Part shown: positions 668 to 54,035 of the stretch, in pieces
How positions within the stretch are numbered: position 1 is the first letter of the stretch
How the letters are laid out: each line of letters starts with the position of its first letter
NCBI GenBank assembly: GCA_016716705.1
Contig: JADJVF010000017.1
Coordinates: 53,808-117,807, forward strand
DNA length: 64,000 nucleotides
Direction of reading: 5' to 3'
Source of the DNA: Holophagales bacterium
GTDB lineage: Bacteria; Acidobacteriota; Thermoanaerobaculia; UBA5066
Program-made: the position numbers and the translations under genes
The notes under the pieces: model-generated
Database searches by the model: none
What the model saw: only the letters and a program-made list of their open reading frames with translations
What the model was told of the DNA's origin: nothing

Positions 668-1204
668 GTGAGGATCCTCGGCGTCGACCCGGGGAGCCGC
701 GCCGCCGGCTGGGCTCTCGTCTCCTTCGACGGACCGCCCCGGCTCGTCGCCGCCGGGGTCCTGCGTCCCGCCACGAACACGCCGTTCGCCGAGAGGCTCC
801 TCGCGCTCCACGACGGCCTCCTCTCCGTCGTGGAGCGCGAGCACCCCGACGAGGCGGCCGTGGAACGGGTCTTCTCGGGCGTCAATCCCCAGAGCCTCAT
901 CACGCTCGGCGAGGCACGGGGGGTCCTCCTCCTCGCCCTCGCTCGCGCAGCGCTCCCGATCCACGAGGTCACGCCCGCCGAGATCAAGAAGACGATCACC
1001 GGCACGGGCCAGGCCGAAAAGGAGCAGGTCCGCAGGATGGTCCTTTCGCTCCTCGGCTCTCCTTCGGGCTTCTCGCGCCTGGCGCTCGACGCTGCCGACG
1101 CAGCGGCGGCCGCCCTCACGCACGGGTTCCGGACGGCGGCCGGGAGGTGTGCCGCCCTGTCCTCGGCCGCGCCTTCTCCCGTCCGGCACCGCGTGGGCGG
1201 TTGA
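668..1204 (+). CDS. ruvC: Crossover junction endodeoxyribonuclease RuvC (Holliday junction resolvase)
   Basis: The translation starts MRILGVDPG, which carries the RNase H-fold catalytic Asp motif of RuvC. It lies 14 nt after yebC. Confidence 0.85.
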   Translation: MRILGVDPGSRAAGWALVSFDGPPRLVAAGVLRPATNTPFAERLLALHDGLLSVVEREHPDEAAVERVFSGVNPQSLITLGEARGVLLLALARAALPIHEVTPAEIKKTITGTGQAEKEQVRRMVLSLLGSPSGFSRLALDAADAAAAALTHGFRTAAGRCAALSSAAPSPVRHRVGG

Positions 1205-1253
1205 GCATCCGGGGGGCGGGTGCTATCGTCTCGCCTCGCGAGACTGCCCACAA

Positions 1254-2147
1254 ATGTCTTTCCAAGGCTCCCTCAAAGAACTCCCCCTCGCCGACATCGT
1301 GCAGCTCGTCGCTGTATCGGGGAAGACCGGGATGTTTGCCCTGAGCCGCGGCGCAGAACAGGGCGCCGTCTACATCCAGAACGGTCAGATCACGCACGCG
1401 AAAGTGAACGACATCGAGGGTGAGGACGCCATCTACGCCCTCGCGCTCTGGAATGAAGGCCAGTTCCAGTTCTCCGCCGGCATCGAGCCTGACGGCCGGA
1501 CGATCACCCGCTCGAACACGAACCTCCTCATGGAGGCGGCGCGGCGGAGCGACGAGTGGAAGATCCTCTCGAGGAAGATCCCCTCGACAGAATCCGTTCC
1601 CCAGCTCGTCTGCCGGGAAGGGCTCAGCGAGCCGGTGACCCTCACGCCGATGGAGTGGCTCGTCGTCACGGGAATCGACGGTTTCAAGTCCATCGAGGAG
1701 ATCGCCCGGGCGGCTCGTATTTCGGCCTTCGACGTCGCCAAGACGCTCTATGGCCTCATCACCGCAGACCTCGTGGGGATCCGATCGAAGGCCGACGCCC
1801 GGGCGGCGTCCGCTCCTGCGCCTCCGGCCGCAGCGCCCGCCCCGTCGCCCGCCGGTCCCGTGGTCACGACGCACAGCGGCGTCTTCAACGCGGTGACTCG
1901 TGGCGACGAGCGCCGGAGCCTCCAGATCCTCTGCACGAAGGTGAAGCAGGAGGCCGAGAGCGCCGCTCTCGCCCCGGGAGACCCCGCGATCGACCGGCTC
2001 TACCGCGCCGCCCTCGGCGAAGTCGACAAGGGACGCGGCCTCGACGTCGTGAGGGAGCTCATCCGAAGCCTCGAGCAGACGGTCGCCGCTCTCCGCGGAC
2101 GCGAGGCGAGCCTCGCCTTCCGCGAGAAGATGGCCCCCCTGCTCTGA
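1254..2147 (+). CDS. DUF4388 (PATAN/receiver-like) domain protein
   Basis: From the internal ATG at 1254, the N-terminus reads SLKELPLADIVQLV...GKTG, as in DUF4388 proteins. The ORF-track start at 1149 adds an implausible Pro/Arg-rich leader. Confidence 0.55.
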   Translation: MSFQGSLKELPLADIVQLVAVSGKTGMFALSRGAEQGAVYIQNGQITHAKVNDIEGEDAIYALALWNEGQFQFSAGIEPDGRTITRSNTNLLMEAARRSDEWKILSRKIPSTESVPQLVCREGLSEPVTLTPMEWLVVTGIDGFKSIEEIARAARISAFDVAKTLYGLITADLVGIRSKADARAASAPAPPAAAPAPSPAGPVVTTHSGVFNAVTRGDERRSLQILCTKVKQEAESAALAPGDPAIDRLYRAALGEVDKGRGLDVVRELIRSLEQTVAALRGREASLAFREKMAPLL

Positions 2148-2551
2148 AGTGTTGGTGGGAAACCCGAGGCCGGGTTTCCCACGCCCTTCCGCGCCCCGGA
2201 GATCGGCCAGGAATCCCTTCCCGCCGCGCCCTCTCCTGTCGTGGCGCTCGGCCGGGTTGCCGGACCCTTCCGCGCCCGCCGGGCGCGAATCAACGCCTGC
2301 GCTGCTTTTTCCTCTATCACGGAACCGCGGGAGTCGGCATTCCCGTTTCCAGACGCCTCGGGGGCTGGCGACAGGACGACGGCCCCCCCCCAGGTTCCTA
2401 ATGACGACCGGGATGGTCAATTGACTTTGCCGGGAAATCCCGTGCTGCTAGACTCTTGACAACTGATCCGAGCCCAGGACGCGGAGCCGCATCACCTTCC
2501 CCGGGTATGGGGGTGACTCGTCCGGTCCCCGGCTGGAAATAAGGAGACTCG

Positions 2552-3904
2552 ATGCGACGGATGCGGACCGGACTCCTCCTCGCGCTGGCCGTGGCACTTC
2601 TCGCGGCTTCTCCGCTGAGCGCTCAGGTGGCTCCCAGCCTCACCGGCGAGACCGGGCTCTTCGAAATCTACGACGCGCAGACGGTCCCACAGGGACGCTT
2701 CGCGTTCTCCCTCTTCTACAGCATGTACGACAGGACGGCGGCGCCCGTGCCCTATGCGGGCACGCTCGCCGACGACCCGCTGCGGTACAGCAGCGACAAG
2801 CTCGGGCTGACGCTCGCGTTCGGCCTCCTGCCGAACTGGGAGGCGTCTTTCTCCGCCGGCCAGCGGGCCTATGACGCCGATGGCCGCGCCTGGGCGGGGG
2901 TCATCGGCGGGCGGAACCAGTACGGCGCGGTCAATCACGACGAGTCCGACAAGTTGCGGATCGGGACGAAGGTCATCCTCAACCAGAAGGACCCGCTGAA
3001 GGTCGCGCTCTTCGGCGCGGTCTACATCCCGACCCAGTCGCGCAACGACGAGTACGCGCTCTCGACCTGGAGGACCGACTGGGAGTGGGGCTTCTCGGGG
3101 ACCTACGGGATCTTCACCGGGCAGTTCGCCTACCTCTGGACCGCCGATGCGACCACCGACTACGACTCGTACGACGTCTCCAACGAGATGCGCTGGTCCG
3201 CGGGCCTCGGCCTGCCGCTCATCCCGGACAGGCTGAAGGGAATCGTCGAGGTCCACCGGACGATGTACGACGGCGGGACGACGCAGCCGCCCGACTTCAC
3301 GGACGCCGTTCTCGGCGCGCGCCTCGCTCTCGGGGACTACTTCGTCGCCAGCGCGGGCGTTCGCGCGAACGTCGACCGCTGGGTGAAGTACGGCAGCTCC
3401 CCGAGCAACATCGGCGGCATCCTCCAGGTCTCTTTCGCGCCGCAGCCCAAGCAGGCCGAGGCCCCGAGGGTCGTCCCGTCGCCTCACGAACCGCCCCCGG
3501 CTGAGCCGGTGCCGGCTCCGGCCCCCGTCGTACAGCCCGCTCCGGCCCCGATCGTCGAGGCGCCTCCCGCTCCGAAGCCCGAGACCTCCACCACGGACGA
3601 GATTCTCTTCGACGCCGCCAAGAGCCGCCTGACGAACATCGCCAAGGCGATCCTCGACGGAGTGGCCCTCCGCCTGAAGAACAACCTCTCGGCGACCTGC
3701 ACGATCGTCGGCTTCACCGACCCGAAGGAGAAGGGCGACCACGCCGCCCTCGGCAAGGCGCGCGCCGACGCCGCGAAGGACTACCTCGTCAAGAGGCACG
3801 GCATCGACGCGTCCCGGATCCAGGTCGACGCCAGGGGCGACGCCGAGGCCGGGGACGACGCGACGCGGAACCGTCGCGCCGTCGTCACGGTCACCTTCCC
3901 GTAA
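2552..3904 (+). CDS. OmpA-family outer-membrane protein (N-terminal barrel-like domain, Pro-rich linker, C-terminal OmpA peptidoglycan-binding domain)
   Basis: A signal peptide (MRRMRTGLLLALAVALLAASPLSA) is followed by a PAPAP linker and a C-terminal domain with the OmpA-like fold signature (TCTIVGFTDPKEKGDHAALGKARADAAKDYL...NRRAVVTV). An AGGAG ribosome-binding site lies 7 nt upstream and a TTGACA -35-like hexamer is at about 2455. Confidence 0.75.
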   Translation: MRRMRTGLLLALAVALLAASPLSAQVAPSLTGETGLFEIYDAQTVPQGRFAFSLFYSMYDRTAAPVPYAGTLADDPLRYSSDKLGLTLAFGLLPNWEASFSAGQRAYDADGRAWAGVIGGRNQYGAVNHDESDKLRIGTKVILNQKDPLKVALFGAVYIPTQSRNDEYALSTWRTDWEWGFSGTYGIFTGQFAYLWTADATTDYDSYDVSNEMRWSAGLGLPLIPDRLKGIVEVHRTMYDGGTTQPPDFTDAVLGARLALGDYFVASAGVRANVDRWVKYGSSPSNIGGILQVSFAPQPKQAEAPRVVPSPHEPPPAEPVPAPAPVVQPAPAPIVEAPPAPKPETSTTDEILFDAAKSRLTNIAKAILDGVALRLKNNLSATCTIVGFTDPKEKGDHAALGKARADAAKDYLVKRHGIDASRIQVDARGDAEAGDDATRNRRAVVTVTFP

Positions 3905-7777: not shown

Positions 7778-8857
7778 TCAGATCCGCGCGATCGCGGCCC
7801 CCCAGTGGAGGCCCGCGCCGAGGGCCGTGAAGCCGACGAGCTTGCCCGGGCCGATCAGGCCCTTCTCCACCGCCTCGTCGTAGACGAGGGGAAGGGTCGC
7901 GGCTGTCGTGTTCCCGTACTTCTGGATGTTGTTGAAGACCTTCGCGTCGGGAAGGCCGAGGATCTTCTGCACCGACTCGTTGATCCTCAGGTTCGCCTGG
8001 TGCATGAGCAGAAGGTCGAGCCCCTCGAGCCGGTTGCCGGTCCTTGCGAGGACTTCGCGCACCGCCTCCGGCATCAGCTGGCTCGCGAGACGGAAGACCT
8101 GCCGCCCCTCGACGATCGGGATCGTCCCGAGGTTCTCGAACATCTCCGGCGTGAAGTAGGGGCGCGACTTGCAGCCGCCGCCGGGGACGTAGAGCTTGTC
8201 CCAGTGATTGCCGTCGGTCTTCATGACGAAGCCGAGGAAGCCCCGCCCGTCGCCCGACTCGTTCGCCTCGAGGACCATCGCGCCCGCGCCGTCGCCGAAG
8301 AGGACCGCGCGGTCGCGCATCCCGGTCGCCCGCGCGTACCAGTACGGGTCGCACGGGCCGTCGGTCCGGCCGAGCATGACGTCCCACACGGACTCCGGCC
8401 ACGGCATGAGGCCCGAATGAACCTCGGCACCGACGAGGAGGACCCGGTCGTACGTTCCCGAGCGGATGAATGCGTCGGCCGTCTGCAGGCCGGAGAGGAA
8501 TCCGGCGCACTGCATCCGGATGTCGAGAGCGTGGGTCGTCGACATCCCGAGCCGCGCCGCGAGGAGGCCGCCGCTTCCCGGAAAGTAGTGGTCCGGCGTC
8601 ATCGTCGCGAAGATGACGAGGTCGATGTCGGCGGGCGTCAGGGACGCCTTCTCCATGGCAGCGCGGGCCGCCTGCGCCCCGATCTCGGCCGGGCCGACTC
8701 CCGGCTCGACGAACCGGCGCTCCCGGATGCCCGTCCGCGGGACGATCCACTCGTCGGTGGTGTCCATGATCCTCGAGAGCATCTCGTTCGTGACGATCTG
8801 GGGCGGAAGGTAGCTGCCCGAGCTGCGGATGACGGTCGTTCTCTGTGTGGAGCTCAT
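7778..8857 (-). CDS. fabH: 3-oxoacyl-[ACP] synthase III (KAS III)
   Basis: The sequence is FabH throughout, including the N-terminus (VIRSSGSYLPPQIVTNE...), the active-site Cys region (QCAGFLSGL) and the C-terminal tail (GFTALGAGLHWGAA). Confidence 0.85.
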   Translation of the reverse strand: MSSTQRTTVIRSSGSYLPPQIVTNEMLSRIMDTTDEWIVPRTGIRERRFVEPGVGPAEIGAQAARAAMEKASLTPADIDLVIFATMTPDHYFPGSGGLLAARLGMSTTHALDIRMQCAGFLSGLQTADAFIRSGTYDRVLLVGAEVHSGLMPWPESVWDVMLGRTDGPCDPYWYARATGMRDRAVLFGDGAGAMVLEANESGDGRGFLGFVMKTDGNHWDKLYVPGGGCKSRPYFTPEMFENLGTIPIVEGRQVFRLASQLMPEAVREVLARTGNRLEGLDLLLMHQANLRINESVQKILGLPDAKVFNNIQKYGNTTAATLPLVYDEAVEKGLIGPGKLVGFTALGAGLHWGAAIARI

Positions 8858-9085
8858 GCGAGGGCGGGGAGTCTAGCCCGGCCGGTCCGGTGGCGCGAGG
8901 TCGGAGTCCCCGGAGTCCCCGGAGTCCCCGGGGCGGCTTCCCGCCCAGCCCGACCGCTACCCGGCATCGAGGTTCGGAGCGCGGAACGTCCTCTTCCGTG
9001 TCCGCCCGCACGGCGCCGGCCCGGCACGCAGGTTGAAGGGGGCGCCGTGCAGGCAGAGAATGACTGCCCTACGGAGGATCGATAG

Positions 9086-9991
9086 ATGAAGAAGAACCTC
9101 GCCGTGGCGCTCGGCCTCCTCGCGGCCCTCGCCTCGTCCGCCGTGGCGGCCGCAGCCAAGCCGCGCGTGGCCGTCATCGAGTTCAAGGACAAGACGTCTC
9201 GCTACTCCTGGTACCGCGCCGGAGAGGCCGCCCAGGACATGTTCGTGACGGAGCTCGTCAAGAGCGGGAAGTACCGCGTCATCGACCGCGAGCAGCTCGC
9301 CGCGATCATGCAGGAGAAGAACCTCTCCCTCTCCGGCGAAATCGACCCGAAGACGGCGGTCAAGGCGGGCAAGCTCCTCGGGGTCGAGTACCTCGTCACC
9401 GGGGCGCTCACCGAGCTCGGCGTCGCCGACCGCGGGGCCCGGGTCCCCGGAGTGTTCGGGATGCCGTCCGTGAGCGTCGGCTCACAGAAGATGGACGCCT
9501 CGATCGACGCCCGGATGATCAACACGACGACGGGCGAGATCGTCTGGGCCGACACCGCAAAGAAGGAGACCTCCGACGCGCAGGTCTACGTCGCTGGCAC
9601 CGGCGGCGGCGTCGATGACAAGAACAAGCTCGACCGCGTCCTCAGGCCCGTCGTCATCGAGCTCGCGGCATCGATGGCGAAGGCCTCGGCCCCGACCTCC
9701 GGCCTCGGCGGCGCGAGCGACGCCTCGGGCATCGCCGGCAAGGTCGCTAAGGTCGAAGGGGGCTCCGTCTTCCTGAACGTCGGCGCCGAGGCCGGCGTCA
9801 AGGAAGGCGACACGTTCGACGTCTACCGGGTCGGCAACGTCATCAAGGACCCCGACACCGGCGAGGTGCTCGGCTCCGACGAGACGAAGGTCGGCCGCGT
9901 CAAGATCACGAAGGTGATGGGCGCCCGTCTCTCGACGGCGTCGATCGTCAACGGCTCGGGCTTCAAGGCCGGAGACATGATCAAGAACTGA
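9086..9991 (+). CDS. CsgG/HfaB-family lipoprotein (curli production assembly/transport-like)
   Basis: A signal peptide is followed by the CsgG-like core (KPRVAVIEFKDKT...YRVIDREQL...LSGEIDPKTAVKAGKLLGVEYLVTG). A good GGAGG ribosome-binding site lies upstream. Confidence 0.65.
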   Translation: MKKNLAVALGLLAALASSAVAAAAKPRVAVIEFKDKTSRYSWYRAGEAAQDMFVTELVKSGKYRVIDREQLAAIMQEKNLSLSGEIDPKTAVKAGKLLGVEYLVTGALTELGVADRGARVPGVFGMPSVSVGSQKMDASIDARMINTTTGEIVWADTAKKETSDAQVYVAGTGGGVDDKNKLDRVLRPVVIELAASMAKASAPTSGLGGASDASGIAGKVAKVEGGSVFLNVGAEAGVKEGDTFDVYRVGNVIKDPDTGEVLGSDETKVGRVKITKVMGARLSTASIVNGSGFKAGDMIKN

Positions 9992-28602: not shown

Positions 28603-29361
28603 GTGCCCATGCGCTTCGAGGCCGTTCGCAGGCTCCTCGAGAGACTCCAGCAGAGCGGAAAGAAGACCCTCGAGCTCGAGGAGACTTCCGGCAACTTCAC
28701 CGACAGCGAGATGGCGTTCGGACGGCTCGTCCTCCCCCTGCTCGAGGACATGGACGCCATGAAGAAGCTCCTCGAGGACCTCTCCCGGCGCGCGCGCGCG
28801 ATGCAGTTCGTCCTCGACCGTCTTCCCGTGGCCGCTCTCGTCCTCGACGCCGAGGGGAGCCTGCTCGCGATGAACACGGTCGCCAAGAAGCACTTCGGTG
28901 GCCCCGCAATCACCTCGGCCGTCCTCCGGGCGGCCCGGCGCGCCCTCCACGGGGACGAGGAATCGGCCTCGACCGTCGACGACCCGCGCCGCAACGGGGG
29001 CACCCTGCGGCTCGTGGCGGCCGACGTCGCGGAGGAGTCGACGGGAGGAGCGACCGGCAAGCCCTCCGTCGTCTTCGTCGTCTCGAACGACTCTCCCCCG
29101 CCCGTCGACGAAGCGGACCTCGTCGCCCGGTTCGAGCTCACGAGGGCGGAGGCGTCCGTCGTCGCGCTCGTCGCGCACGGCCTGTCGAACAAGGAGGCCG
29201 GCGAGCGGATGGGGAGCTCCGTCGAGACGGTCCGGTCGCAGCTCGCGAGCGCGTTCCGGAAGACAGGCGCCCGCAACCGGGCCGGCCTCGCCGCCCTCGC
29301 CTACGGCGCCCGCTTCGGGCAGGGACCGATCTCGGGCGCCTTCCCGCCCCTCGAGGAGTGA
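28603..29361 (+). CDS. LuxR-family (GerE-type HTH) transcriptional regulator
   Basis: A C-terminal LuxR-type HTH is present (LTRAEASVVALVAHGLSNKEAGERMGSSVETVRSQL). Confidence 0.65.
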   Translation: MPMRFEAVRRLLERLQQSGKKTLELEETSGNFTDSEMAFGRLVLPLLEDMDAMKKLLEDLSRRARAMQFVLDRLPVAALVLDAEGSLLAMNTVAKKHFGGPAITSAVLRAARRALHGDEESASTVDDPRRNGGTLRLVAADVAEESTGGATGKPSVVFVVSNDSPPPVDEADLVARFELTRAEASVVALVAHGLSNKEAGERMGSSVETVRSQLASAFRKTGARNRAGLAALAYGARFGQGPISGAFPPLEE

Positions 29362-30278
29362 ACACCGCTTCGCTCCGCGCCCTCCTCTCGGAGCGGCCGT
29401 TCCTTCTCGACGCCGCGCTCGGGACCGAGCTGTCCCGCCGCGGCGCCCCCGCCTCTCCTCCCCTCTGGAGCGCGCGCGCCGTCCTCGAACGGCCGGACCT
29501 CGTTCTCGCCGTCCATCGCGAGAACGCCGCCGCCGGGGCCGACATCCTCACCGCGGACACCTTCCGGACGCAGCCGAAGCTCCTCGGCGGCGCCGCGCGG
29601 GAGGCCACGAGACGCGCCGTCGCCCTCGCGCGGGAAGCGGCCTCCGCCCGCCCCGGCCTCCTCGTGGCCGGCTCCGTCGCTCCGGTCGAAGACTGCTGGC
29701 GCCCCGACCTCGTCCCGGCCGATGCCGAGCTCGCCCTTCTCCACGCGCTCCACGCCGAGGCGCTCGCCGAGGCCGGCGTCGACCTCCTGCTCCTCGAGAC
29801 GTTCGGGACGGCACGCGAGTGGCTCGCGGCGGCCCGCGCGGCCACGGCCACCGGCCTCGCGGTCGTCGCCTGCGCCACGACACGAGAGGACGGCGCGCTC
29901 CTCTCGGGCGAGCCCCTCGGAGACGCCGCCCGGCCTCTCCTGGACCTCCCCTCGCCTCCCGTCGTCCTCGGCGTCAACTGCGTCCCCGCCCGGCGGCTCG
30001 GCGCGAGCCTCGCCCTCCTCGCCTCCGCCGTGCCCGGACTCCCCCTCGCCGCGTACGGGAACACGGGGCTCGCCCTCGACGAGGCCCGCGGCGAATTCAC
30101 CGAGCCGATCGCGCCGCTCGACTACGCCGGGCTCGCTCTCTCCTGGCTCGCGCTCGGCGCCCGCGTCGTGGGCGGCTGCTGCGGGACCCGGGCACAGCAC
30201 GTCGCCGCCCTGGTGGCGAGCCTGGTGCCGCGGAACCTCGCACCCCGGCCGGACGGTCCAGCCCCCTACGGGAAGTAG
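29358..30278 (+). CDS. Homocysteine S-methyltransferase domain protein
   Basis: The pterin/Hcy-binding (S-methyltransferase) domain is present, with the C-terminal zinc-ligand motif GGCCGT. A GTG start overlaps the luxR-family stop. Confidence 0.7.
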   Translation: MNTASLRALLSERPFLLDAALGTELSRRGAPASPPLWSARAVLERPDLVLAVHRENAAAGADILTADTFRTQPKLLGGAAREATRRAVALAREAASARPGLLVAGSVAPVEDCWRPDLVPADAELALLHALHAEALAEAGVDLLLLETFGTAREWLAAARAATATGLAVVACATTREDGALLSGEPLGDAARPLLDLPSPPVVLGVNCVPARRLGASLALLASAVPGLPLAAYGNTGLALDEARGEFTEPIAPLDYAGLALSWLALGARVVGGCCGTRAQHVAALVASLVPRNLAPRPDGPAPYGK

Positions 30279-45374: not shown

Positions 45375-45935
45375 ATGAACGCGAGGAGCCCGCCAGGAGT
45401 CCCGCCCGCCGAAAACCACGGCCCGGCGCCGGCCCCTCGCCTAGACTTCTCGTGGCATCGGGAGGACGTCATGCTCGACACGATTCCTCGACGGACCACC
45501 ACGCCGTGTGCGGCCAGCGTACGGTTGCAGGGAGGCCCCCGCCTCGACGTGACCTTCTGGCTTCTGCCCGACCCGCAGAGAGAGCGGGGAGTCATGCCGC
45601 TGAGCCTGCTCCTCGAGGAGGATCGCAAGTTCTTCCCCGTGGGCCTCTCCGACGCCTCGAGCGGACTCCTCTCGCGGGACGCTCTCGTCACGGTGGAGAT
45701 CGACGCCGACGGGCCTGGCGCCGAGCCGGCCCCGGCGGAGGGGATGTCCCTCGACCTCGTGACGCTCCATCTCGTCTCCGGGGAGGAGGTCTCCGGGATC
45801 CTCAGGTCCACGGCGCTCGCGGGCTATGCCCGGATGTCGGACGTCTTCAACTCCTTCGGCCGTTTCGTCCCGATCGGCCTCGGTACGCGGCTCGTGTTCG
45901 TCGCGACGGGCCATATCGCGCGCGTGTCGTTCTGA
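45375..45935 (+). CDS. Hypothetical protein (possibly begins at the internal ATG 45471)
   Basis: This is a 186-aa ORF immediately upstream of pilT. I recognise no confident family. Confidence 0.35.
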   Translation: MNARSPPGVPPAENHGPAPAPRLDFSWHREDVMLDTIPRRTTTPCAASVRLQGGPRLDVTFWLLPDPQRERGVMPLSLLLEEDRKFFPVGLSDASSGLLSRDALVTVEIDADGPGAEPAPAEGMSLDLVTLHLVSGEEVSGILRSTALAGYARMSDVFNSFGRFVPIGLGTRLVFVATGHIARVSF

Positions 45936-45948
45936 AGGAGGGCGAACG

Positions 45949-47667
45949 GTGGCTTCTCGCATCGACCTCCTCGTGGCCAACCTCCTCCAGACCGAAGGCG
46001 AGGCGCTCTACATCATTCCCGGCGAGAGGCTCTTCATGACGCGCGGCACGAGCCGCGTCTTCGTCGGGCGCGAGCCGGTCAGCGTCGAGTCCTTCCGCGC
46101 CGTCGTCGCCGAGGTGGCTCCGGGCCAGGCACCCGACGAGCTCGCCCGGACCCGCTTCCGGATCCCGATGAAGCTCGGTCCCGGAAGGGAATCCGTCGAG
46201 ATTCGCTTCGGTCTCCTCGGCGGGAACGCGGGCCTGATGATCTGCCGTCCGGCGCGGATGACCCCGAGTCCCGAGCCGGGGCCGGCTCCGGCGAAAGAGC
46301 TCGAGCTCGAGCCGGCGCCCGTCTCGCTGCAGGGCCCCGCCACGGCGTTCCTTCAGGCGCCCTCTCCCCTCCCCGCCCAGGTCCCGCCGCACCTTCAGAT
46401 CCCCGCCTCGACGCGGGTCCCCGGCGTCGCGCCGGCGCCGATCCCGGCGGAGGAGATCCCCTATCCCGCGGCCGCTCCGGCTTCGGTGGAGCCGTCGCGC
46501 CTTTCGGTCCTGAGCGAACGGCCGCTCGACGTGATCCTCCTGCGGATGCTCGAGCTCTCGGCATCGGACGTCCACCTCTCCTCCGGAACTCGTCCCCTGT
46601 TCCGCATTCACGGCGAGATGGCCGAGCAGGCCGACCAGCCCGTCCTCAACTCGGAGGAGGTCGAGAGGCTCCTCGCTCCCATCTTTCCCGAGAGGAACCG
46701 GACGGAGTTCCTGGAGCGGCACGACACCGACTTCGCCTACGAGATCGCCGGGGCGGCGCGTTTCCGGGTCAACGTCTTCCGGGACCGGCACGGCGTCGGG
46801 GCCGTCTTCCGCCAGATCCCGATCGAGATCCTCACGGCGCAGCAGCTGGGTCTGCCCGCCTCGGTCGTGAGGCTCGGGGACCTCACGAAAGGGCTCGTCC
46901 TCGTGACCGGCCCGACCGGCTCCGGCAAGTCGACCACGCTCGCCGCCCTCGTCAACTACGTCAACGAGACGCGGACCGACCACATCATCACCATCGAGGA
47001 CCCGGTCGAGTTCGTCCACCGCAACAAGAAGTGCCTCGTGAACCAGCGCGAGGTCGGGAGCCACACCTCCTCGTTCAAGGATGCCCTCCGCGCCGCGCTC
47101 CGCGAGGACCCCGACATCGTCATGGTCGGCGAGATGCGCGACCTCGAGACGGTCGCGATCGCCATCGAGACGGCCGAGACCGGCCACCTCGTCTTCGGGA
47201 CCCTTCACACGACGACCGCGACCTCCACCATCGACCGGATCGTCGACCAGTTCCCGGCCGACCGGCAGCAGCAGATCCGGACGATGCTGGCCGACTCCCT
47301 CAAGGGGGTCGTCGCACAGACGCTCTGCAAGAAGATCGGCGGCGGGCGAGTCGCCGCTCTCGAGGTCCTCCTCACGAACAACGCCGTCGCGAACCTCATC
47401 CGCGACGGGAAGACCTTCCAGCTCCCGTCGGTCCTCCAGACGTCGAAGGCCCAGGGGATGGTCCTCCTCAACGACTCGCTCCTCGACCTCGTGAAGAAGG
47501 GCCTCGTCGAGCCCCGCGAGGCCTACCTCAAGGCCGTCGACAAGGCCGGCCTCCTCGGCTCCTTCCGGAGCAACAACATCGCCCTCCCGACCGAGGTTGC
47601 GACGCCCGAAACCGGCGTGGCTTCGGGGACCGGCGTGCCGGCCGCGGGACGTCCGCCGGGGGGCTGA
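45949..47667 (+). CDS. pilT: Type IV pilus retraction ATPase PilT-like, with a roughly 210-aa N-terminal extension
   Basis: The C-terminal roughly 350 aa are a canonical PilT (Walker A GPTGSGKSTT, Asp box, Walker B, His box, AIRNLIRE-like ANLIRDGK). The N-terminal domain and Pro-rich linker have no PilT counterpart. Confidence 0.8.
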   Translation: MASRIDLLVANLLQTEGEALYIIPGERLFMTRGTSRVFVGREPVSVESFRAVVAEVAPGQAPDELARTRFRIPMKLGPGRESVEIRFGLLGGNAGLMICRPARMTPSPEPGPAPAKELELEPAPVSLQGPATAFLQAPSPLPAQVPPHLQIPASTRVPGVAPAPIPAEEIPYPAAAPASVEPSRLSVLSERPLDVILLRMLELSASDVHLSSGTRPLFRIHGEMAEQADQPVLNSEEVERLLAPIFPERNRTEFLERHDTDFAYEIAGAARFRVNVFRDRHGVGAVFRQIPIEILTAQQLGLPASVVRLGDLTKGLVLVTGPTGSGKSTTLAALVNYVNETRTDHIITIEDPVEFVHRNKKCLVNQREVGSHTSSFKDALRAALREDPDIVMVGEMRDLETVAIAIETAETGHLVFGTLHTTTATSTIDRIVDQFPADRQQQIRTMLADSLKGVVAQTLCKKIGGGRVAALEVLLTNNAVANLIRDGKTFQLPSVLQTSKAQGMVLLNDSLLDLVKKGLVEPREAYLKAVDKAGLLGSFRSNNIALPTEVATPETGVASGTGVPAAGRPPGG

Positions 47668-47679
47668 AGTCCTGACGCT

Positions 47680-48471
47680 TCAGGGAAACACCCGGGTCAG
47701 AACTCCCGTCGCCACCAGCGACGAGAACTGCTGCTCGAGCGACAGCGCGAAGGCAGGGTCCCGAACCAGCGCACCCGCCTCGATATTCCGCACGTGGGCC
47801 GCCTCCGTGAAGTTTGCCGAGGTGACGAGGGCGGTCTGGCTGTCGACGACGATGCACTTGGCGTGGATGACGCCGCGCGCGTCTCCCTTCTTCGCGAGGG
47901 CGCGACGGTCGTAGTAGAGCTCGGGCTCGCGTTTCGCCGGCCAGTTCTTCTTCAGGAACTCCCGGAAGTGGTCGCGGGCCACCGCGTCGGGGTCGAAGTC
48001 CGTACCGGGAGGCGGCGGGACGTTCAGGAAGAGGAGCACCCGGAGATCCCCGATCTCCTCCATCCGCGCCGCGAGCGGCTCGAACACCTCTTTCCCGAGG
48101 TAGACCGTGTAGCTCGAGATCAGGACCGTCCGGATGGCGGTCGAGAAGAGCTCCCGCACGACGACGGACGTGTCCCGGCTCTGGCTTCCGGGCGTCTCCG
48201 GCCCGGTCCAGACGAGCTCGACCCTGTCCGCGGCCGCCTCTTTCTGCTTTCTCTCCGCGGAGGCCGCGAAGAGGACTTCCGCGATGTGCTCGGGCGGCAC
48301 CCCCACGCCTTCCAGTCGACTCAGCTCGGCAACCAGCCCCGACAGATCGACTTTCGGGACGTATCTCGCCAGACCGCCGACGGAGTAGGGGCCGGAGAGC
48401 CTCCCGTCGGCGAGCGCCCGGGCGATCGTCTCGAGCGCCGCCCGCGAAGCTCCGCCGAGGGAACCGCTCAC
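47680..48471 (-). CDS. Phospholipase D-like (HKD) nuclease, DISARM DrmC-like
   Basis: A single HKD motif is present (HAKCIVVDSQTALVTSANFT). It is the last gene of the helicase-DUF1998-PLD operon and its start overlaps the DUF1998 gene's stop by 4 nt. Confidence 0.7.
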   Translation of the reverse strand: MSGSLGGASRAALETIARALADGRLSGPYSVGGLARYVPKVDLSGLVAELSRLEGVGVPPEHIAEVLFAASAERKQKEAAADRVELVWTGPETPGSQSRDTSVVVRELFSTAIRTVLISSYTVYLGKEVFEPLAARMEEIGDLRVLLFLNVPPPPGTDFDPDAVARDHFREFLKKNWPAKREPELYYDRRALAKKGDARGVIHAKCIVVDSQTALVTSANFTEAAHVRNIEAGALVRDPAFALSLEQQFSSLVATGVLTRVFP

Positions 48472-50270
48472 AGGTCCTCCTCGCCGAAGAACTCCGGTCC
48501 CGGGCCGAGGACCGTCGGGACGACGAGAGCGCGATCGAGGAAGTCGTTCCTGTTTTCGCAGCTCGGCTCCGAGATCAGGAGGCAGCCGTGGCAGGCCGAC
48601 CCCGAGAGGAAGCGCTCCTCCTGGCTGCTGTTCGGCCGGTGCATCGCGCAGACCGGATCGTTCGAGCAGAGGCGGGCCATCTCCAGCGCGCGGCGCAGGT
48701 GGAGGTCGAGGCGGCGACCGACGTCGATCAGGCCTCCCAGCGTCCCCTCAGCGTCGGGGCTCGACGTGTAGAGAAGGATCCCGTGCGCGTCGTCGCCCGC
48801 GTAGATCCGCTCTCTTATCGAGCTCGTCGCGTAGCCGCAGTCGAGCGATACCGCCGTCAGCAGGAGATGCGACAGCGAGTGGAGGAGGATGTAGGGGAGC
48901 CCCGGGAACTCCGCGTTCGGCTTCTTGTGGACCGTCTTCCAGGCCTCGAACCCTCCCGCCAGCTCCTTCTCCCGGACCTGGACCTCGGGCCGCTTCCGCC
49001 AAGCGGAGACCCGCGAGGGGTCGAGGGTCAGGAAGATGCCCTCGCCCCGGTTCTCGACAGCCGGAACCCACTTCACCTCGGACGCGAGCGGGGCCGACCG
49101 CACGTCGAGAGAGAGCTCCCCGTCGATGTCGGCGGCCTGCGCCTCGAACCTCGTGAAGCCCACCTGCGCCGACACCTCGCGCAGCCGGTCCACGAGGACG
49201 ACCCGGTCGATCGCCCGGAGCGGTCCCGTCTCTCTCCTGATGGGGATGCGCCGGGCCAGGAAGTCGGCGCCTCCGTGGAATTCCTCGCCGAGCTTCTCCT
49301 TCACCGACAGGAGCGTGGCCAGCTCCAGCTCCTTGATCTTCTGGTTCGGGAGAGGTCCTCCCGTCCGGCGTCTCTCGATCTCCGCGAAGACCTCGTCGTC
49401 CGACAGGCCGTCGAGGGCGGCTTTCACGGATGGACGTTTCCGCTCCTTGGCGAGATCCTCGCGGCTCTCCACAAGCGACAGGAAGTCTTCCCAGAGCTTC
49501 GCCACGGCGTCGCGCACGAGCGACCCACGGTCCGGGAGAGAAATGACGCTGAGGACCTGCGAGAAGTAGGCGTCGCTGGCCGAGCGGATGAGCAGGCGGC
49601 TGAGCTGCAGCTTTCCGCCTTCTCCGCCGCACTTCTCTCCTGCGTACTTCCCCAGCCAGGGCCGCTTGCCGAGGCATGCCCCGAGGTTCTCCGCACCGCG
49701 CCTCGTGGCCTGCGCCATCGACCGCTCCTGGCCGCAGTCGCATCCGACGATGACGTCCGCGAGGTCTCCGGAGGAGCCCCGCTCTTCCATCCAGATCTGC
49801 CGGGCGCAGTCGCCACGGTACTGGTGAATGAAGCCGTGCCAGTCGATGTCGGACAGGTGACCCAGGACGCAGGCCTGAACGAACCGGACCGGGATCGCCG
49901 GGACCTTCTTCCCGTCCACCTCGTATCGGCCCTTCGTGAGGCTCTCGAGGTGAACGAGCGGCCGCCTCTTCCTCTTGACCTGCACCACGAACCACTCCGG
50001 AAACTGGAACGCCGGCACGCCTGTCGGGGTCTTTCTCTCGTCGTCGTCGGCGATCGGCGGCCCCTTCAGCGGCACCGGCTTCGCGCGATTCAGCACCGCC
50101 GCGACCTTCGCCGAGAGCCTCTCCTCGACGATCGCCGGCATCTCCGCCTGGGGAAACCAGTAGTCGAGCCCGCTGACGACGACCGAGTGGTTCGGCAGGT
50201 CGACCATCGAGCCGGGGCCGTAGGTCCGGATGAGCTGGCTCCGGCGGATCTCCCCCTGGTGCTTCTTCAC
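48468..50270 (-). CDS. DUF1998-domain protein, DISARM DrmB-like
   Basis: From the GTG start, the N-terminus reads KKHQGEIRRSQLIRTYGPGSMVDLPNHS. A C-terminal Cys cluster (CAMH…CHGCLLISEPSC) is typical of DUF1998. The start overlaps the helicase stop (GTGA). Confidence 0.7.
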   Translation of the reverse strand: MKKHQGEIRRSQLIRTYGPGSMVDLPNHSVVVSGLDYWFPQAEMPAIVEERLSAKVAAVLNRAKPVPLKGPPIADDDERKTPTGVPAFQFPEWFVVQVKRKRRPLVHLESLTKGRYEVDGKKVPAIPVRFVQACVLGHLSDIDWHGFIHQYRGDCARQIWMEERGSSGDLADVIVGCDCGQERSMAQATRRGAENLGACLGKRPWLGKYAGEKCGGEGGKLQLSRLLIRSASDAYFSQVLSVISLPDRGSLVRDAVAKLWEDFLSLVESREDLAKERKRPSVKAALDGLSDDEVFAEIERRRTGGPLPNQKIKELELATLLSVKEKLGEEFHGGADFLARRIPIRRETGPLRAIDRVVLVDRLREVSAQVGFTRFEAQAADIDGELSLDVRSAPLASEVKWVPAVENRGEGIFLTLDPSRVSAWRKRPEVQVREKELAGGFEAWKTVHKKPNAEFPGLPYILLHSLSHLLLTAVSLDCGYATSSIRERIYAGDDAHGILLYTSSPDAEGTLGGLIDVGRRLDLHLRRALEMARLCSNDPVCAMHRPNSSQEERFLSGSACHGCLLISEPSCENRNDFLDRALVVPTVLGPGPEFFGEEDL

Positions 50271-53200
50271 GCCTCGGCCTCCTCGATCTCGGGAACGTCC
50301 CGGTTGTCGAGGCGCCTCAGGACCAGGCCGACGCTCGGCTCGACGTCTCTCATCGCGCGCTGGGCCCGGAACTTCCTCATCTCGGGGTAGAGATCGAGCT
50401 CGGGGTCGAGCGGGTCGCGCAGCAGCGGGAAGGCGTTCGCCGGGTTGCCGCGCTCCCATTTCTGGTAGACCACCTTCACGTTCTTCTCCCGCTTCTCGCG
50501 CGCGAAGACCGCCCAGCTGTCGAGGAGGTCGTCCACGAGGCTCCGAACCCGCTTGCGGAGGGCCTCGAGATCCTCGTCGCTCTTCGAAGGGTCGTGCCCC
50601 GAGGCCCTCTGCGACATCGCCTCCGCCACGAACCCCGCGTCCTTGCGGCACCTCTCCATGGCGGCGGCCCCGCCCGGAGGCTGCAGCTCCCGTATGCCGT
50701 GCCGCGCGAGCGCGACGCAGACGGCCGCGGCCGCCCGGTCGAGCGCCCGCGCCGAGAAGGGCGTCACGCTCGTCGCCTCCACGGCACGGTAGAAGGTCGC
50801 GTGGTACGCCTCGAACCGCTCGTAGTGCGACCGGTCCCGCGGACGGTGGACGTTCTGGAGCGTTACGACGAGGCCGGGCCGGTTGTCGTCGCGGCCGACG
50901 CGGCTCGTCGCCTGGATGTACTCCGACGTCGTCTTCGGCTGCCCGAGGACGACCATCAGCCCGAGCCGCGGGATGTCGAGGCCGACGGAGATCATGTTCG
51001 TCGCCAGCGCCACGTCGACGTGGTCCTTGTGGTCGTGGGAGAAGGCGAGGCGCTCCCTTGCGCGGGAGACCTTCGACGTCGATTCGCGCGACGTCAGCTC
51101 GACCACTTCCTGCTGGATCTGACGGTCGCGGAAAGGGCCGGCGATCTCTCCCATCCGTCGCCGCTCGCTGCGCTGCGCGGCTCTCGCCGCGACCTCGTCC
51201 TCGACGATCCGTCTCGTGCCGCCCAGCTCCCTGAGGCTCGTGAAGTAGCCGAGAAGGCTCATGTAGGGGTCCGCCGGGTTCTTCTCCCCGAGCGCCGTCC
51301 CGCCCGCCTCGTCATACATTCGCTGCGAGGCCCCGAGCAGCGCGAGATAGGCGCGCAGCAGCAGGACCTTCAGGCTCCGTCCCTGCGCGGAAAGCCCGAC
51401 GTACGTCCGCGGCTCCTTCTCGGAGACGGGCACCGTCCGCGCGAAGAAGGAGTCCCGCCGATCGGGACCAGGGGGAGGAAACACCGCAACCGACGAACGA
51501 CCGAACAGCGCCTTCACCTGCGCCTCGGCCCGCCGGATCGTCGCCGTCGACGCTACGATCTTCGGCCGGATCGCCTTGCCGTCGACGAACCGCGTCGCCA
51601 GCGTGTCGATCGCGATCTCGTACAGCCCCGCGATCGTCCCGAGCGGCCCGGAGATCAGGTGCAGCTCGTCCTGGATGATCAGGTCCGGCGGCAGGAGCTC
51701 CTTCTCCGCCTTCCCGAACAGCCCTCCCACCTCGCCGACCCACGGAAGGCTCGCGAACTTGTCCACCGTGGCGATCAGGAACGCGGGGAGCCTCTGGTAG
51801 ATCGGCTCGTCCACCGTCAGGATCGGCAGCGGACGCCTGCCGGTGAAGTCGCAGTCGCGGTTCATGCAGACGACCCTCAGGTCGGTCGGGCGGTCCGCGT
51901 TGGGCAGAAGCGAGAACGACGGCGGCAGGAACGGCTCGCCACACCAGGGGCAGCTCTCCAGCGGAATCGGCGGCGGATAGCGCTTGCTGTCCTTCTTGTA
52001 GCGAAGCGTCTTCGACCTCGCCGTGTTCTCGTCGCCGTCGGCCTTCGAGCCCATCCGGTTCGGCGTGGCCGCCCGGCCCACCCAGAGCCCGACCTCGAAC
52101 GGCCATTCCCCCATTTCGGCGGGATTCGTCTCTCTCTCGAGCTCCAGGGCACAGACGAGCGCCGCCACGCGCCCAAGCTGGTCGAGCGTCAGGAGCCGGA
52201 GCGTGTATCTCATCAGGACCGAGACCCCGGCCGACGAAAGGCCCGGGTTCCGGAGGCGCCGAAGGACCATCGTGAAGGCCGCGAGCCCCAGGTAGGCCTC
52301 GGTCTTTCCTCCGCCCGTCGGGAAGAAGAGAAGGTCCACCGCGTTGCGATCTGCGGACTTCGGGTCCACCACGCTTCTCAGGTTCATCAGGAGGAACGCG
52401 AGCTGGAACGGGTACCACGCCGGAGCGCGCGTGGCCTCGGGCCGCACCTTCAGCAGCATCGCCTGGCGGCGCCGGGCCGCCCGGGCCATCGCCCGGTTCG
52501 CCACCTGGAACGCCTGAGAACCTGCGGGTCGGAAAGAAGGCCGATCCCCGTCGCGATCCGGCCGCAGGCGAGCTCGGCGTCGCGCAGAAGGAACTGCGCG
52601 GTCTCGGCGCGCCGCCCCTCGAAGACCTCGCTGCGCTGCCTTCCTATCCACTCTGCGTAGCGAAGCGGAAAGGGAGCCAGCGCCGACTTCAGCTCGTCCG
52701 GCCCCTTCATCGCAGCCAGGGCTTCCATCCCGAGCTCGACGCCCGGCATCAGGGTCGGCTCCACCTTCTCCACGGCCGCACGCGGCACCCATTCCGTGGA
52801 GACCTCCCGGCACTCGCCGTCGCTCCCGAAGACCGTCCGGGCCGAGACGCCGTGCCCCACGACGAACTCGACGACGTCCCGGTACTGGAGGTCGGCGACG
52901 CGCTCGTCCCAGTCTTCCGCTTCGAGCCCCGTCGCATTCGGCCTCGGCACGAAAGGCTGCTTCCCCCGCACGGTGAGACGAACCTGGAAGGCCATCGCCT
53001 CGTCCTTCCGTTCGTCGGGCGCGGGCTTGCGATAGTTCACGACGAAGACCGAGATGCTTCGCGTTCCGGCCGGAAGCCCCAGCCTCTCCATCCCATCCGC
53101 CGGCCGAGCGGTGACGATCAGCTTCAGCCCGCCGGAGTCCGGAAGGTCGAGAGGAAGCGGCTTCGAGCCGTTGCCCGTGACGGCCACCCGGAGAACCGAC

Positions 53201-53622
53201 CGCTTCGGTTCCCTCTTCCACGTGTCGCCGGCCCGTTTCGTCGCGCCCTCGCCCTCGCCCTCCGCCGCCGGCAGGCTGTAGTCCCCCCAGGTCACCTCCG
53301 CCTCGAGCTCCTGCAGCCCCGCCGACGTCAGGACGCTGAGGCCGATGGACGAAGGAAGGAACGCCTTCCTCGCAGAGGCCCGGTCGGGCGCATCGGAGTC
53401 GTCCGCCCCCACCTCGTCACCGGCAGCGAAAAGCTCCTCGTTGCTCGTCTGGTCGCACTTCTGCTCGTCCGACGCCTCGAACGGCACGAGGAACCCGCCG
53501 ATGTACCAACGGGATGGCTCGTCGGGCAGCTCTTCGCGCTCGTGCACGCTCCCCGGCTCCGGACCGGTGAGGTCGAGCCGCAGGGCCCGAATCAGCTCGT
53601 CCCGGACTTCGGCGGATTTCAT
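50267..53622 (-). CDS. DExH-box helicase, DISARM DrmA-like; reading frame interrupted by a 1-nt frameshift near 52505-52530
   Basis: The N-terminal part is ORF 53622..52450 (MKSAEVRDELIRALRLDLTGP…). The helicase part lies in a different frame, ORF …52516..50267, with motif I FFPTGGGKTEAYLG and motif II IIQDELHLISGP. The two frames abut at the rev-comp sequence …PQVL|QAFQVANRAM. Confidence 0.65.
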
Positions 53623-54035
53623 CGTGGTCCTCTCCAGCTCAGGGGAGCTCCACTTTGCGGGACTTGTCGACGTGATCGCCGGACAGCGCGCCTTCCGGAC
53701 TCATGATACCCACGCTCGAGAGGCACTCTCGCCGGCCAGGTCGGGGCGACCCCGAAGCGGTATCGCGGCGCATGGCACTCCTGACCTGGGACTGAGCCCA
53801 CATCGCGAACGCCGAGCTCTTCCCGCAAGTGGCCCGCCTCGTCGAGCGACGCGGCCTTGGCCCTCAGAACCTCGGCCAGGGTGCAATCATCGGCAAAGGG
53901 GTAGTTGGGAAGTCGACCCGGCGTCTCCAGGGCATCCTGCCCGCGCTTCGCAAACTCGAGGAACTTCTGTGGTCCCTCTCGGCACCCTGGACGTTCTCGA
54001 GGTTCCTGACGAAGAAGCGCTCGTCCCTCCTGCGC

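Follow-up and report, generated by a model that had tools for sequence, protein, structure and literature searches.

A single-base frameshift divides drmA into two reading frames in a methylase-less DISARM-like operon of a Holophagales bacterium

In a 64-kb stretch of DNA from a Holophagales bacterium (assembly GCA_016716705.1, contig JADJVF010000017.1, positions 53,808 to 117,807 of the forward strand; the whole stretch is called the window, and positions are given in its own numbering), a helicase resembling DrmA of the DISARM phage-defence system is spread over two overlapping open reading frames (ORFs) of the minus strand. Does this locus hold two genes or a single broken one and, if it is broken, does the break belong to the genome or to its assembly? 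The initial annotation, made from the letters alone, had proposed a frameshift that splits one helicase gene, and translation of both ORFs bears this out. ORF1 (53622..52450, 390 aa) encodes the N-terminus of DrmA (aa 1-369) and is sensible up to ...GIGLLSDPQVL (Leu369), after which it runs through 21 Arg/Gly-rich nonsense codons, RRSRWRTGRWPGRPGAARRCC, to a stop. ORF2 (53221..50267, 984 aa) opens with exactly 235 nonsense codons, where the annotation had counted about 235, as it had about 20 at the end of ORF1, and then encodes DrmA aa 370-1118, beginning with QAFQVANRAMARAARR and followed by the helicase motifs (FPTGGGKTEAY, DELH etc.). PADLOC profiles for DrmA match both halves: PDLC02571 positions 2-245 lie on ORF1, and PDLC02575 spans the junction, its positions 6-81 falling on ORF1 aa 293-367 and the match continuing into ORF2 (892 bits). 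The 3' part also matches Pfam Helicase_C (PF00271).

Three approaches placed the break at the same point, inside the interval of about 52505-52530 that had been predicted. By three-frame translation and inspection of the raw sequence, the two sensible frames join at base 52516 (...CCG CAG GTT CT|C AGG...); a homology-free Viterbi segmentation on codon-position G+C content (GC3) detected a same-strand frame switch at 52515/52516; and alignment of the repaired protein and DNA to homologues located the exact indel at 52516. The change is CC to C, which moves translation from frame 0 to frame -1, the window allele being GTTCTCAGG and that of the closest relative GTTCTCCAGG. Adding one base to the offset ORF2 restores the frame and yields a DrmA of 1118 aa, close to the roughly 1,120 aa anticipated and collinear with all homologues examined. 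The site is neither a homopolymer nor an unusual G+C tract, the longest runs nearby being of 3 nt, so the suggestion that an error had arisen in a GC-rich tract has no specific support. The elements of the broken gene are as follows.

52517..53622, minus strand: drmA 5' part, from the ATG at 53622-53620, with codons 1-368 and the CT of Leu369.
52516..52516, minus strand: the lesion, a single C where relatives have CC, at Leu369|Gln370, placed by DNA alignment and GC3 segmentation.
50267..52516, minus strand: drmA 3' part, codons 370-1118 and the stop TGA at 50269-50267.
52450..52515, minus strand: out-of-frame tail of ORF1 (21 codons), ending at a premature TGA (52452-52450); GC3 follows the other frame.
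52517..53221, minus strand: spurious 235-codon extension of the helicase ORF, Arg/Gly/Ala nonsense; GC3 gives this stretch to the ORF1 frame.
52487..52504, minus strand: speculative in-frame restarts, GTG at 52504-52502 (Val374) and ATG at 52489-52487 (Met379).

The 235-codon extension stays open because of its G+C content of about 70%, and is noncoding in that frame.

Homologues were compared at the protein level, as the 120 best of approximately 8000 matches to the repaired DrmA, and at the genomic level, as 85 fetched loci. All 120 proteins are single polypeptides of 1114-1173 aa that cover 98-100% of the repaired query, the best of them (P0001) being a helicase from a Holophagales metagenome-assembled genome (MAG) with 96% aa identity. 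In the protein alignment (...DPQVL-QAFQVANR...) the repaired DrmA is collinear, with no residue missing. The locus of P0001 (L001; Holophagales bacterium OdNE_18-Q3-R46-58_BATAC.193, GCA_016714815.1, contig JADKBZ010000001.1; hereafter the sister) shares 92.7% nucleotide identity with the window over the 6 kb of drmABC, and only three coding indels separate them, two of which are in frame (+6 nt and +3 nt), while the third is a 1-nt gap at 52516/52517 where the window reads GTTCT-CAGG and the sister GTTCTCCAGG. The sister drmA is thus intact, with CTC CAG at the site, and the frame also runs uninterrupted through it in five further relatives (six in total); the codons there vary among relatives (CTC CAG, TTT CGG, TTC CGG, TTC AAG). 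The 3' part shares 98% aa identity with another relative, L002. When the 85 loci were searched by tblastn with the repaired protein, none had a DrmA match split over two frames, a layout found in the window alone. A natural two-gene split at this point, which would have told against a frameshift, is thereby refuted: the locus is one frameshifted drmA, a known kind of lesion and not a new gene arrangement.

The two genes that follow drmA are both intact.

48468..50270, minus strand: drmB (DUF1998/MZB), PADLOC DrmB 253 bits, Pfam PF09369 41 bits.
47680..48471, minus strand: drmC (PLD-family nuclease), PADLOC DrmC 281.6 bits, Pfam PLDc_2 (PF13091) 50 bits.

The drmB gene gives a single-frame, full-length tblastn match to relatives, and drmC shares 97% aa identity with that of the sister. 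The start GTG of drmB (50270-50268) overlaps the drmA stop (GTGA, 50267-50270, minus strand), the start GTG of drmC (48471-48469) overlaps the drmB stop in the same way (GTGA, 48468-48471, minus strand), and a GAGGAGG-type Shine-Dalgarno sequence stands ahead of each overlap. Together these overlaps and Shine-Dalgarno sequences imply that drmA, drmB and drmC are translationally coupled.

The age of the lesion was estimated from substitutions on the window and sister branches, polarised with the outgroup loci L003, L005 and L004. Counts on the window branch and the ratios of non-synonymous to synonymous substitution rates (dN/dS) were the following.

drmA: 50 synonymous, 27 non-synonymous, dN/dS 0.19 (sister 0.11-0.18).
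drmA, helicase part only: 26 synonymous, 8 non-synonymous, dN/dS ~0.11.
drmB: 32 synonymous, 12-13 non-synonymous, dN/dS 0.13 (sister 0.13-0.16).
drmC: 13-19 synonymous, 3-4 non-synonymous, dN/dS 0.08 (sister 0.07-0.08).

The sub-ranges of drmA were divided at aa 376/377, the true boundary being 369/370, which leaves the result unaffected. No secondary lesion (stop codon or further frameshift) was found in drmABC, and neither relaxed selection nor the extra lesions of a decaying pseudogene are apparent. Low dN/dS and the lack of any other lesion mean that the frameshift, if real, arose in a small final part of the branch. It would be either very young or an error of assembly or consensus, and the sequence by itself fits both.

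How noisy the assembly is was judged from the rest of the window. Among its approximately 55 genes, drmA is the sole broken one detected, and GC3 segmentation gave no other same-strand frame switch away from a stop codon or gene boundary in the 64 kb. Frameshifts suggested by GC3 at 566-2147, 20.3-22.2 kb, 25.3-26.9 kb, 34.9-37.5 kb and 60.8-62.2 kb turned out to be normal adjacent genes with complete Pfam domains (e.g., RuvC 1-148/148 followed by a DUF4388 protein). About 35 genes of the window have full-length, single-frame Pfam domain matches, and all 18 housekeeping orthologues held in common with the sister MAG read in a single frame from residue 1 (18/18). An isolated lesion, complete domains and clean orthologues together indicate that assembly indel noise is low.

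On balance we lean towards a genuine, evolutionarily very recent one-base deletion in drmA, possibly a population variant, and infer that the base is missing from the genome and not just from its consensus sequence. The basis for this is that no other frame break was detected in the 64 kb, that the gene hit is a defence gene and dispensable, and that the base was lost from a 2-nt run, unlike the long homopolymers typical of long-read indel errors. In addition, CCWGG, the motif in which the lost base lies in the sister, is not depleted in the window, which counts against systematic motif-linked base loss. The locus resembles ordinary young bacterial pseudogenes, with a single disabling indel in a dispensable gene, intact orthologues and no secondary lesions.

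The strongest competitor is that the 1118-aa drmA is intact and that one C of CTC-CAG was dropped in base-calling, polishing or consensus, in which case the operon would be a normal, functional methylase-less drmABC. Two observations weigh directly against a genuine deletion. The absence of secondary lesions and a dN/dS as low as that of the sister are exactly what an artefact in a functional gene would produce, and the closest relative comes from a long-read MAG ('tig...'), so that, if the window was assembled in a similar way, a rate of about one residual indel in 64 kb would be plausible. An error of consensus or assembly is accordingly compatible with the sequence and a serious possibility, if short of probable. 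In its favour, the repaired gene is under strong purifying selection and has no other defect, drmB and drmC are intact, and data of the kind behind the nearest relative (contig tig00000899) leave occasional single-base deletions. CCWGG is moreover a common 5-methylcytosine site and a cause of nanopore miscalls, and the lost C falls in a CCAGG (CCWGG) of the sister, at window 52511-52522, with another, intact CCWGG 8 nt away. On the other hand, no other frameshift exists in the ~55 genes of the 64 kb, 18 of whose orthologues were checked by homology, the site is no homopolymer, and by length alone a random error would strike drmA in only ~5% of cases. Some 200 other CCWGG sites, including the one 8 nt off, are intact: 201 were observed in the window against 148 +/- 12 expected from shuffles, an excess that could reflect codon usage. 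Systematic loss of C at CCWGG was thus rejected, the motif being over-represented and not depleted. Exact-sequence look-ups of the window ORF1 and DrmC for an independent assembly of the same strain returned no record, and two metagenome scans with DNA patterns across the site, one for both alleles and one for the window allele only, gave 0 matches each. The initial annotation had offered sequencing error and genuine inactivation as alternatives, and both remain live.

The position of the break within the protein was mapped on DrmA of Serratia sp. SCBI (PDB 7S9V/7S9W), to which the repaired DrmA aligns from Serratia residue 217, in the trigger-loop region, to the C-terminus (E=7e-168 to 7S9V chain A). 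Both share an N-terminal chassis, RecA1, RecA2 and a C-terminal arm, and in both drmB and drmC follow as in DISARM, although the repaired DrmA is ~200 aa shorter at its N-terminus (1118 vs 1325 aa). In the Serratia protein (Bravo et al. 2022, PMC9142583), the tandem RecA motor occupies residues 600-1150, the N-terminal half serves as a structural chassis and touches DrmB as well, and residues 176-232 are an autoinhibitory trigger loop; DISARM defence cannot do without the RecA modules and ATP hydrolysis (PMC9142583). Correspondingly, the 5' part of the window gene encodes the N-terminal 'chassis' half, including an acidic trigger-loop-like stretch at ~aa 45-85, and the 3' part encodes, in order, a helical linker, RecA1 (with Walker A FPTGGGKTEAY), RecA2 (Helicase_C) and the C-terminal arm. 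In the 7S9V alignment the break at Leu369|Gln370 corresponds to Serratia L526|A527, which means that the trigger loop and chassis are cut from the whole motor ~70 residues before RecA1.

If the deletion is genuine, translation from the ATG at 53622 would give a 390-aa product (369 authentic and 21 nonsense residues) with its stop at 52450, ~70 residues short of the RecA1 motor domain. No ATPase/helicase core would be produced, or at best it would be produced inefficiently from internal starts, and 2.2 kb of mRNA would go untranslated. DrmB and DrmC would probably be lowered too, because coupling to drmA would be lost and polarity would set in. Phage defence by this system would in that case be switched off in this genome or population variant.

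It is very unlikely that the break is instead a functional split or a recoding site, with a programmed -1 frameshift restoring full-length DrmA or the two parts assembling into a working protein. The features that might be read this way are the in-frame GTG and ATG 4 and 9 codons past the break, with AGGTG 12-13 nt before the ATG (52489), the location of the break in the helical linker that joins the N-terminal half to RecA1, outside the RecA domains, and the splitting of YprA-family helicases elsewhere, e.g. into DrmA/DrmB (bioRxiv 10.1101/2025.09.15.676423). However, intact relatives have the restart bases too, as part of their normal coding sequence; no new start or ribosome-binding site (RBS) has evolved, and both candidate restarts precede the ORF1 stop. 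No X XXY YYZ slippery heptamer exists at CAG GTT CTC AGG, and the two-frame layout is in none of the 85 loci or 120 best protein matches, whereas programmed frameshifts and natural splits are normally conserved; programmed frameshifting is rejected on these grounds. Naturally shorter PADLOC DrmA profiles start elsewhere, at ~aa 288 and ~aa 525. One specific form of this idea, that the break is tolerated because a chassis/trigger-loop polypeptide (aa 1-369) and a core re-initiated at Val374/Met379 reassemble with DrmB, seems to us hardly probable; if true, a two-piece DrmA would show a YprA-family defence helicase at the start of natural gene fission, in a DISARM lineage that lacks the methylase. 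Least credible of all is a phase-variable ON/OFF switch by slipped-strand mispairing, for although defence and restriction-modification genes are sometimes phase-variable and the change is a one-base difference in run length, the run is only 2 nt in relatives against 1 in the window, no simple-sequence repeat or long homopolymer is nearby, and relatives show ordinary codon variation with no conserved tract. With no repeat tract present, this reading is effectively refuted.

The initial annotation had also tied the break to a missing methylase, as in autoimmunity-driven decay. According to the summary of Ofir et al. (2018) in bioRxiv 10.1101/2021.12.28.474362, DISARM comprises drmA with Helicase_C, drmB with DUF1998 and drmC with PLD, and its definition adds a methylase, either the N6-adenine drmMI (Class 1) or the C5-cytosine drmMII (Class 2). 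The window has drmA with Helicase_C (though frameshifted at 52516), drmB directly downstream, and drmC; within its 64 kb it lacks an associated DNA methylase and the SNF2-like drmD that lies upstream in Class 1. No tblastn match to DrmMI (Class 1) or DrmD was found in the 64 kb, and Pfam/PADLOC scans of ~50 window ORFs revealed no DNA methyltransferase or SNF2 domain, the only methyltransferase among them being a homocysteine S-methyltransferase. The window therefore differs from Class 1 DISARM both in a gene broken by a 1-nt deletion and in having neither drmD nor drmMI.

Whereas the absence of the methylase was thus upheld, its proposed link to decay was not. Every informative close relative with an intact, constrained drmA (L001, L005, L082 and L083, at 62-96% identity) has drmABC only, without drmD or drmMI in the available flanks, and drmABC without these two genes also occurs at L012, L013, L039 and L056. 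Among the more distant homologues, at 55-63% identity, most belong to complete Class 1 operons (drmD-drmMI-drmA-drmB-drmC). As methylase-less relatives keep an intact drmA, the lack of a methylase is no sign of decay or autoimmunity. This agrees with experiments on the Serratia Class 1 system, to which the DrmA of the window is related: deleting the methylases there did not provoke autoimmunity, and DrmABC by itself gave protection against phage M13 (bioRxiv 10.1101/2021.12.28.474362). It also agrees with the way in which DrmAB tells self from non-self, which rests on DNA structure, the trigger loop being displaced by a 5' overhang, and not on methylation only (PMC9142583). Judged from these comparisons of sequence, methylase-less drmABC is a stable, normal trait of this Holophagales/Acidobacteriota clade under purifying selection. 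In three relatives the cassette adjoins other defence or toxin genes (AbiEii, PIN/MazE, McrBC, SIR2-like).

The sister operon is, like that of the window, a methylase-less set of three genes with the same overlaps and the same upstream motif, and the main differences lie in drmA and in the flanks, which carry AbiEii, an AAA_11/12 helicase and GGDEF in the sister and DUF2059, a hydrolase and a T2SSE-type ATPase in the window. Window positions 14125-34808 are syntenic with 502-524 kb of the sister contig JADKBZ010000001.1 (L086) at 83-92% nucleotide identity, the shared genes including citrate synthase, Fur, signal peptidase, GatB, FtsEX-like, two SDRs, a VWA protein and Dus. GatB shares 90% aa identity between window and sister, and a search with GatB gave at best 92%. 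In the sister, drmABC and the 20 kb syntenic block are on one 786-kb contig, and both genomes have the operon in the same general part of the chromosome. At 92.7% identity, drmABC is comparable with the syntenic housekeeping DNA (83-92%), and the differing flanks do not call for a recent horizontal transfer of the cassette. Within the block, the sister alone has a PAD_porph (agmatine deiminase-like) gene, located between ftsX and the two SDR genes, and the window alone has the homocysteine S-methyltransferase gene (~29359-30278).

Two further loci showed other layouts. At L041 8500-12200 (a Myxococcales MAG) the drmA homologue is without its first ~277 codons and two unrelated ORFs (8723-9283 and 9293-9832) lie upstream on the opposite strand; it looks like a 5'-truncated drmA remnant, that is, drmA decay by another route. 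In L004 (a Holophagales MAG) a segment for DrmA aa 152-347 (178-762) is inverted, on the opposite strand and upstream of that for aa 294-1118 (900-3434), which represents either an inversion/duplication at a contig end or an assembly chimera.

Upstream of drmA, two elements are shared with the sister.

53628..53635, minus strand: Shine-Dalgarno-like GGAGAGGA, 5 nt upstream of the drmA ATG, conserved in the sister.
53700..53711, minus strand: motif GGGTATCATGAG, which holds a -10-like TATCAT and is identical in the sister, the intergenic surroundings diverging with indels.

A consensus promoter scan of the drmA upstream region found nothing, and GGGTATCATGAG is a possible candidate for a promoter element of the operon. 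Conservation between 53640-53760 and ~9800-10000 of L001 is patchy, with GAGCGTGGGTATCATGAG (-10-like TATCAT) and the RBS region kept; between them the sister carries a 50-nt insertion, and the region may serve as promoter or operator. At the other end of the operon, a T2SSE/PilB-type secretion ATPase gene (45826-47667, plus strand) converges on drmC with ~12 nt between the stops; its weak PADLOC matches to mad3/mad8 involve the P-loop only, and it probably has no link to defence. The window drmABC is set among ordinary chromosomal genes.

In annotation, the locus is best entered as a single frameshifted drmA, either a pseudogene or a suspected sequencing error, and not as two genes, and the DISARM-like system in this assembly should be scored as probably non-functional. 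Beyond annotation the finding has little significance, the lesion being biologically ordinary and of a known type. It does carry a caution for the reading of related genomes, since methylase-less drmABC is normal in this clade, where drmA is intact and constrained.

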